Part shown: one piece after another, positions 61,155-61,321 of the stretch
Position numbering within the stretch: position 1 is the stretch's first letter
Layout of the letters: every line of letters starts with the position of its first letter
Source: an uncultured Clostridia bacterium
GTDB taxonomy: Bacteria; Bacillota; Clostridia; Oscillospirales; Oscillospiraceae
DNA: 64,000 bases
Direction: 5' to 3'
Assembly: GCA_947383645.1 (NCBI GenBank)
Contig: CANDEH010000001.1
Span: 16,230-80,229, forward strand
The notes under the pieces: generated by a model
The model's input: only the letters and a program-made list of their open reading frames with translations
What the model was told of the DNA's origin: nothing
Databases searched by the model: none
Position numbers and translations under genes: made by a program

Positions 61155-61321
61155 AATTAGGAATTAGGAATGAGGAATTAGGAGTGAATGTGTCCGGCGT
61201 CGCCGGACAATTTGAATTTGGACGCTGCGGCGGTCTGCGCTATCTCCACTCTAAATAATTCCAATCTGCGGCGCAAAGCGCCGCCACCAAAATTCCTAAT
61301 TCCTAACTCCTAATTCCTCAT
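61155..61321. repeat. AATTAGG-heptamer inverted-arm element (family 2) with ~105-nt structured core
   Basis: Arms are AATTAGGAATTAGGAATGAGGAATTAGGAG and AATTCCTAATTCCTAACTCCTAATTCCTCAT. It fills the hemA-sirC spacer exactly, from stop codon to SD. Confidence 0.85.

Follow-up and report, generated by a model that had tools for sequence, protein, structure and literature searches.

Transcribed MITEs that are processed in mRNA include the Correia/NEMIS elements of Neisseria, which are cut by RNase III, and the ERIC/IRU elements of enterobacteria, and in both cases mRNA processing or stability is altered. Heptanucleotide repeats of the STRR type were reportedly described from cyanobacteria by Mazel in 1990. 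Beggiatoaceae carry TAACTGA arrays that place stops in all three forward frames (PMC4679880), and, according to the account of Mrazek (2007) given in PMC4679880, the long SSRs of many genomes are most often heptanucleotide repeats. Each Xanthomonas genome contains GGGAATC arrays in 70–75 convergent pairs, and arrays of GGGGAYT units occur in Nostoc (Rehm et al. 2015, PMC4692102), the heptamer arrays of both genera being transcribed (PMC4692102). In the 23S rRNA of Coxiella burnetii, an intervening sequence (IVS) contains variable-number tandem GACAGAT heptamers in its 5′ part and has a 28-bp terminal stem that is cut by RNase III in vitro (PMC4990558). That heptanucleotide repeats are the most over-represented long SSRs of bacteria has been recognised since 2007, and rRNA IVSs with an S23p ORF have been on record since about 1990; no origin or function is accepted for either.

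Here we analysed a heptamer-armed element in the cobalamin/heme operon of an uncultured mouse-gut member of the Clostridia, whose relatives' proteins carry the labels Oscillospiraceae, Flavonifractor and Intestinimonas. The element lies in a stretch of 64,000 nucleotides, which is referred to as the window.

The element between hemA and sirC

[quoted passage not shown] The fit is as exact as the initial annotation of this DNA had claimed, in that the hemA stop codon (TGA, 61322–61324) shares its last base with the first arm unit and the sirC SD (AAGGTGG, 61145–61151) lies 3 nt past the nearer arm, followed by the sirC ATG at 61137–61139. As an inverted repeat, the arms AATTAGGAATTAGGAATGAGGAATTAGGA (61155–61183) and TCCTAATTCCTAACTCCTAATTCCTCATT (61294–61322) are 29 nt each, 90% complementary and 110 nt apart, and TRF returned a 7-nt unit for both (4.1 and 4.7 copies); read on the plus strand, the units are AATTAGG AATTAGG AATGAGG AATTAGG A.. 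and then ..CCTAATT CCTAACT CCTAATT CCTCATT. The window contains 21 occurrences of the 14-mer AATTAGGAATTAGG at up to two mismatches, where 0.06 would be expected, and none of 100 shuffles reached 21, so the pattern is not a product of chance. Base composition marks the element too: the window has 63.3% GC and the AATTAGG unit 2/7, and 100-nt windows over the element fall to 0.47–0.52.

Folded as RNA in operon sense, the arms of this copy form a helix of about 30 bp (−78.7 kcal/mol, z = −6.05, with 0 of 200 shuffles as stable), and arm lengths of 29–33 nt pair in both the MFE and the centroid structures; a second copy (63198–63345) folded with z = −4.03. The heptamer arms, the two GC hairpins and the long RNA helix that the initial annotation had described were all present on these measures. 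The hairpin at 61191–61209 keeps its structure in other copies through a compensatory change from G–C to A–U. A scan of the whole 64-kb window with Rfam gave no match at gathering score and found no rRNA.

Separately, we considered whether the element might be a terminator. It has one terminator-like match, the hairpin at 61191–61209 with a T-rich tail, and this sole match lies antisense to the operon; the terminator reading was rejected.

Gene structure around the spacer also differs among relatives. In Flavonifractor sp. An112 and similar relatives (homologues P0070–P0110), a SirC-like NAD_binding_7 domain and HemA are fused in one protein of 544–548 aa, as against the separate genes here that are split by the element, and in a 69%-identity relative (L131) an additional ORF of 114 aa, with no Pfam match, lies between hemA and sirC (7216–7560). 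Elsewhere in the window, an 873-nt non-coding gap from a 148-aa ORF to hemB (about 57025–57898; 15273–16146 on L001, a same-species contig that reaches beyond the window) contains many GC hairpins and no heptamer arrays, and Rfam gave no hit for it at gathering score. Probable coding repeats, at 51800–51908 and 49293–49448, are a long hexamer array (TTCTGG, 18.7 copies) and tandem repeats of 54 nt and 33 nt.

Table 1 Features of the hemA–sirC element, its flanking genes and related copies (window coordinates; last row, coordinates on contig L001)
Feature	Position	Strand	Description
5′ arm, operon (mRNA) sense	61291–61323	−	AATGAGG AATTAGG AGTTAGG AATTAGG AATT; G-containing, C-free
3′ arm, operon sense	61155–61187	−	Minus strand ..ACTCCTAATTCCTCATTCCTAATTCCTAATT; pairs with 5′ arm
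Core	61188–61290	−	End-to-end homologous to cores of at least seven other same-lineage elements; either orientation relative to transcription
Subterminal GC hairpin	61191–61209		TGTCCGGCG/TCGCCGGACA, then inward ATTTGAATTT
Subterminal GC hairpin	61268–61284		GCGGCGC-AAA-GCGCCGC; GTCGCC-TTC-GGCGAC at the same place in other copies
hemA (glutamyl-tRNA reductase)	61322–62479	−	385 aa; sister-species protein 398 aa, running on into sirC
sirC-like gene (NAD_binding_7, PF13241)	60705–61139	−	144 aa
Second full copy	63198–63345	−	cbiK–cbiL spacer; same orientation; 83% identical to hemA–sirC copy
Short-core element	39729–39826		Core 34 nt; AATTAGG/CCTAATT arms of 32 nt each; between convergent genes
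Solo arm	16006–16044	−	5.6 units, between murG-like and murA-like genes
Half element	4766–4822	+	G-arm of GAGATAG units (= ATAGGAG) and hairpin 1, TATCCCGCC-TTT-GGCGGGAT
Six elements on L001	287–480, 2872–3040, 5088–5117, 8831–9001, 9826–9973, 11848–12016		

Related copies and the history of the site

The element belongs to a repeat family, as the initial annotation ('Family 2') had proposed: the window also holds a second full copy, a short-core element, a half element and a solo arm (Table 1). Several of these adjoin or enter coding sequence. The arm of the short-core element contains the TAG stop (39821–39823) of a minus-strand DUF2284 gene, the array of the solo arm contains the TAG stop (16032–16034) of the upstream gene, and the half element follows directly after a sigma-70 family gene. 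The search for copies in the genome and its relatives, which the initial annotation had suggested, recovered six elements that occupy successive cob/hem operon spacers on L001, one of them with AGGAGAT/CTCCTAT arms and one without a 5′ arm, as well as presence/absence differences relative to a sister species. An alignment of eight elements extends over their full length and gives a single layout (G-arm, GC hairpin, GATTTGAATT, variable middle, AATTCAAAT, GC hairpin, C-arm); with respect to transcription, the eight lie in both orientations. Across the aligned elements, 7 of the 26 consensus pairs stay paired through two-sided changes (for example, AGGAGAT with CTCCTAT arms), and the number of heptamers per arm varies between strains (L001 versus L002). 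In L002, a CTCTCCG heptamer array of 7.6 copies (356–408) lies within the core of the first element.

Comparison with relatives dates the copy between hemA and sirC. In the sister species (L127, HemA 83% identical), hemA and sirC overlap by 23 nt and the element is absent, as it is from the cbiC–cbiK junction of that species; the cbiK–cbiL and cobD–aminotransferase elements are common to the sister species, where the ortholog of the second copy has lost its 5′ arm. A relative with 80% HemA identity (L215) has plain junctions at cbiK–cbiL and cbiC–cbiK, and in L131 (69% HemA identity) the element is absent from every spacer compared. The hemA–sirC copy and the cbiK–cbiL copy are 83% identical, versus only 61% identity between the cbiK–cbiL copy and its sister-species ortholog, and these values, together with the absence of the element in relatives, show by sequence comparison that the hemA–sirC copy is a recent paralogous gain in the lineage of this species. 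Its source was most likely the neighbouring cbiK–cbiL copy or a shared master. The gained copy sits where hemA and sirC overlap in the sister species, and HemA is now 13 aa shorter.

Both element-free sister-species sites that were examined (L127 4278–4300 and 7152–7170) carry the 13-mer GAGAGGAGTTAGG, which amounts to two or three arm-type units, and they hold the only plus-strand occurrences of GGAGTTAGG in the 13-kb sister-species locus. These units could be footprints of loss, or seeds or targets for gain, and at those two sites loss with a footprint, instead of gain, is possible. Seed units exactly at the sister-species junctions, together with array copy numbers that vary between strains and the prevalence of heptanucleotide repeats among the long SSRs of many genomes (Mrazek 2007, to the extent cited in PMC4679880), would also suit growth in place, in which slippage extends the SD-like seed GGAGTTAGG and the inverted partner arises locally without mobility. 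However, slippage can create neither a shared core nor an inverted arm, cores of about 105 nt are homologous at at least eight sites, with the close identity of the first two copies given above, and the sharp mode of array length at 30–33 nt (among the matches listed in the scan described below) would be unexpected under neutrality. The core homology largely refutes growth by slippage, which we regard as very improbable.

We also weighed whether the host has selected the element as an operon regulator, an inter-cistronic RNA that sets the hemA:sirC ratio via processing, partial termination or translational uncoupling and for which the repeat nature would be incidental. The exact placement from stop to SD, the presence of six elements in one cob/hem operon, the compensatory changes that keep arms and hairpins, and the one inward-facing hairpin whose T-rich tail resembles a terminator all speak for regulation, but members of the family also lie between murG and murA, between convergent genes and after the sigma-factor gene, both orientations are seen, the site is empty in the sister species, Rfam has no match, and the terminator-like tail at 61191–61209 is antisense to the operon in the hemA–sirC copy. 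Selection as a regulator is, on this balance, a doubtful explanation of why the element is there.

Heptamer arms across bacteria and PF05635 cassettes

A single scan of 185,579 species genomes with the pattern AATTAGG-ARTKAGG-AATTAGG found at least 119 loci, and those listed include, by their record titles, Bacteroidota, Cyanobacteria, Verrucomicrobiota, Acidobacteriota, Planctomycetota, Clostridia, Proteobacteria and candidate-phyla lineages, with a locus GC of 35–71% among the matches listed. Among these same listed matches, array length has a sharp mode at 30–33 nt, cores are 2–389 nt long and show no relationship between phyla, and neighbouring arrays at most 400 nt apart have the G-arm first (AATTAGG..core..CCTAATT) in 39 cases and the reverse order in 0; when all inverted heptamer pairs in the matches listed were counted, the G-containing arm was 5′ in 48 of 50 (other units, 14 of 15). 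The 39:0 polarity and the length mode together exclude chance. The core of the window family had no nhmmer match among the 119 other-taxa loci listed, so the core is lineage-specific and the arm architecture alone is shared; likeness between phyla is a likeness of architecture, built on arms of such low complexity that homology between phyla is not provable. In 869 kb of array-carrying loci, period 7 was by far the commonest tandem-repeat period (409 of about 1,040 TRF rows). The G-first rule could stem from common descent from a single element, from avoidance of a C-rich 5′ arm that would be exposed and could load Rho, or from repeats being added to 3′ ends.

One array in these loci (L012 3433–3514) mixes AATTAGG, GATTGGG, GACTGGG and related units, which suggests a continuum between AT-rich units and G-rich heptamers of the STRR or G-quadruplex type.

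The two longest cores, one from Segetibacter (L055) and one from a Neisseriaceae contig in which genes for phage capsid E and Mu gp36 flank the cassette (L070), each encode a PF05635/TIGR02436 protein exactly between AATTAGG-type arms. PF05635 goes by the names 23S rRNA-intervening sequence protein (S23p) and four-helix bundle protein. In the reverse test, 67 of 80 metagenomic PF05635 loci had period-7 arrays within 150 nt on both sides, and in 62 of the 80 the arrays were inverted complements, with a median length of 32 nt each, placed about 15 nt before and about 8 nt after the conserved domain. Units vary between PF05635 loci, with AATT in 37 of 61 (8.6 ± 2.6 expected) and a consensus of A-A-T-T-A-n-G, to which AATTAGG is close. 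Polarity in these cassettes is weaker (38 G-first, 18 C-first and 6 ties). Protein identity is 62.5% for loci with the same unit versus about 53% for loci with different units, a weak correlation that shared descent alone would be expected to give and that is no test of protein–unit specificity. Of 20 PF05635 loci tested for rRNA location, 19 were outside rRNA and one, L165, was inside a 23S rRNA gene, a true IVS in which inverted heptamer arms likewise enclose a PF05635 gene; an rRNA location therefore does not define the wider class.

Named organisms provide further examples of this arrangement. In Monoglobus pectinilyticus (NZ_OY725736.1; L217, about 80807–81250), AATTAGG-type arms in the hsdS–hsdR spacer of a type I restriction-modification operon enclose a PF05635 pseudogene that is unannotated and is interrupted in frame by two stops, both at conserved Gln positions. 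The Nostoc punctiforme plasmid pNPUN01 has (AAGTCGG)4.6 and (ACTTCCG)5.7 on either side of a PF05635 gene, and Euhalothece pEu1 has a like array–gene–array arrangement. Treponema saccharophilum pTS1 (L219; 28–315, 319–364 and 761–837) is a complex variant with no simple inverted pair, in which a 41-copy GGAAAGN array and a C-rich array adjoin each other ahead of a four-helix-bundle gene, with a second C-rich array downstream. A scan of viral contigs for PF05635 relatives, using narrow peptide patterns, returned one locus (L134), with inverted AATTTGT/ACAAATT arms. PF05635 is homologous to Avd of diversity-generating retroelements (PMC10053308), S23p of Xanthomonas is a homopentamer (noted in PMC4990558), and PDB 2RLD, a close homologue, was deposited with five chains. 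No PF05635 gene turned up when the window and the related loci were searched with the profile, and the hemA–sirC element itself has no ORF, its core being about 105 nt long with stops in all frames; with no PF05635 ORF between its arms, it is filed as a cargo-less derivative and not as a full IVS-type member.

The varied units of the PF05635 loci also bear on two functional readings in the initial annotation, namely that the arms act as a six-frame stop cassette and that they are an SD-like purine repeat. Stops do occur in all six frames of the whole element (4, 5 and 2 per frame on one strand, 3, 3 and 3 on its complement), but the arm at 61155–61187 blocks only two of three frames per strand, because of its AATGAGG unit, and the other arm blocks three of three. 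Since 7 is not divisible by 3, any heptamer that contains a stop brings it into every frame, and among 178 PF05635-flanking units stops numbered 118, against 116 ± 5 when shuffled. Stops being no commoner in the heptamer units than in shuffled ones, we rejected a stop-codon design and regard the stops as a by-product of an AT-rich period of 7. The likeness to an SD sequence holds for the AATTAGG unit and does not carry over to the class, in which related elements have AATTACG, AATGCAG, AAGTCGG and other units.

Polarity and the PF05635 link together raise the possibility that the arrays are footprints of healing, left where a templated activity, telomerase-like or of a reverse transcriptase, added G-rich heptamers to 3′ break ends that were then joined with filler. 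Additions at both 3′ ends would put the G-arm 5′ on both strands, matching the strict G-first order (39:0 and 48 of 50 among the matches listed), and Avd, the homologue of PF05635, is a reverse-transcriptase accessory of diversity-generating retroelements (PMC10053308). We nevertheless consider healing highly unlikely: no reverse transcriptase was seen near any element, the cores are not random filler but copies shared between sites, and the polarity is equally explained by common descent or by selection against an exposed C-rich 5′ arm.

The coding cassettes likewise inform a comparison with ordinary MITEs, that is, deletion derivatives of a DNA transposon that are moved in trans by its transposase, with the heptamer arrays as terminal inverted repeats (TIRs) holding multiple transposase-binding sites. 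The hemA–sirC element is small, non-coding and multi-copy, occurs in both orientations, has inverted termini and conserved subterminal hairpins, and differs in presence between relatives at orthologous sites, all in keeping with such an origin. Inspection of six copies for a target-site duplication found nothing consistent (AAGGTG flanks the hemA–sirC copy on both sides, and other copies lack a consistent counterpart), so that none could be defined; copies with a shared core differ in their arm units (AGGAGAT versus AATTAGG), unlike fixed TIRs; no transposase adjoins any copy in the loci examined; and the coding partners that were found carry PF05635 only. The initial annotation had held that an autonomous partner elsewhere would make the element an ordinary MITE. 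A coding partner was indeed found, in the form of PF05635 cassettes with AATTAGG arms, but its protein is no known transposase and that classification is not established; we judge a conventional MITE origin unlikely.

Interpretation and comparison with known systems

The reading that we favour, with a probability of roughly 60%, is that the hemA–sirC element is a cargo-less, MITE-like member of a pan-bacterial class of heptamer-armed palindromes that carry PF05635 in their coding form. The repeat family, the covariation of its arms, the architecture, polarity and length mode that run through the class and the association with PF05635 are the observations on which it stands. Class members would have arms of about 32-nt tandem-heptamer arrays, the 5′ arm containing G and free of C and the 3′ arm being its complement; the coding form would carry one gene, PF05635/TIGR02436 (S23p, an Avd-like four-helix bundle); and the classical 23S rRNA IVSs would be members that chance to sit in rRNA. 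The hemA–sirC copy is presumably co-transcribed with its operon, its arms are predicted to pair in the transcript as a dsRNA helix of about 30 bp, and RNase III probably cuts this stem, by analogy with the stem of the rRNA IVS, which would yield a hemA-side and a sirC-side RNA that each end in half a stem. Such an element would be primarily selfish, and any effect on the relative expression of hemA and sirC may be secondary.

A broader proposal, which we put forward tentatively and would not expect to hold in full, is that a single system of mobile cassettes exists across bacteria, that PF05635 is the gene belonging to it, and that IVSs, the Xanthomonas/Nostoc/STRR pairs and cargo-less copies are all manifestations of it. 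In that case, a pentameric Avd-like protein might bind the arm, as DNA or RNA, through five AATT blocks phased at 7 nt (about 32 nt), and might promote copying or processing, with cargo-less operon copies being served in trans.

For the favoured reading, a cargo-less member of a heptamer-armed class, the significance is that one architecture ties together PF05635 genes (at most loci sampled), a bona fide rRNA IVS and recently spread gene-less cores in a cobalamin/heme operon. It offers a testable unit for both puzzles, the over-represented heptanucleotide repeats and the rRNA IVSs: arms of about 32 nt, G-first polarity and a pentameric protein. Annotation is affected as well: elements of this kind provide adjacent genes with their stop codons and undo overlaps between genes, and they probably introduce RNase III sites into operons.

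Among known systems, Correia and ERIC elements resemble the hemA–sirC element as small palindromes in operon spacers that form long hairpins and are co-transcribed (as is presumed here), but those elements have fixed-sequence TIRs, with a TA duplication in Correia, whereas the arms here are variable heptamer arrays and no duplication was seen. More broadly, the element is of an already known and poorly characterised kind, that of IVSs and heptamer pairs, which the initial annotation under-read as unique and over-read as a stop cassette; its view that the architecture was undescribed is superseded by the heptamer stem of the Coxiella IVS (PMC4990558) and the convergent GGGAATC pairs of Xanthomonas (PMC4692102). 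A full-text literature search for the AATTAGG repeat, in all rotations and on both strands, found nothing relevant, and a search for PF05635 with flanking heptamers found no link beyond Coxiella.

Like the STRR and the Beggiatoaceae TAACTGA repeats, the window arrays consist of tandem 7-mers that are dispersed and mostly intergenic, a period over-represented against others, and the repeats share a tendency to lie at gene ends or just before starts and an occurrence across distant phyla. The STRR and TAACTGA repeats have been described mainly as direct arrays, with one indirect repeat in BOGUAY and without shared cores or paired-arm elements (PMC4679880). The Xanthomonas and Nostoc arrays are closer in form, being intergenic tandem heptamers, mostly of about four units, in inverted pairs (PMC4692102), and the mixed L012 array links the units; they have been studied as G-quadruplex formers, with no report of core homology, insertion history or a PF05635 link (PMC4692102), and the AATTAGG unit differs from theirs in being AT-rich and without a G-tract.

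Closest of all in architecture are the rRNA IVSs with an S23p/PF05635 ORF, known from Coxiella burnetii and Leptospira (PMC4990558). The hemA–sirC element differs from them in having no ORF, in lying in an mRNA spacer and not in 23S rRNA helix 25 or 45, and in belonging to a family that is multi-copy within one operon. It shares with them terminal inverted repeats that form a stem of about 28–32 bp, a selfish character (presumed here) and a patchy distribution and, with the Coxiella IVS in particular, arms of tandem heptamers whose number varies between strains; the stem of the rRNA IVS is a substrate of RNase III, and that of the hemA–sirC element is predicted to be one as well.
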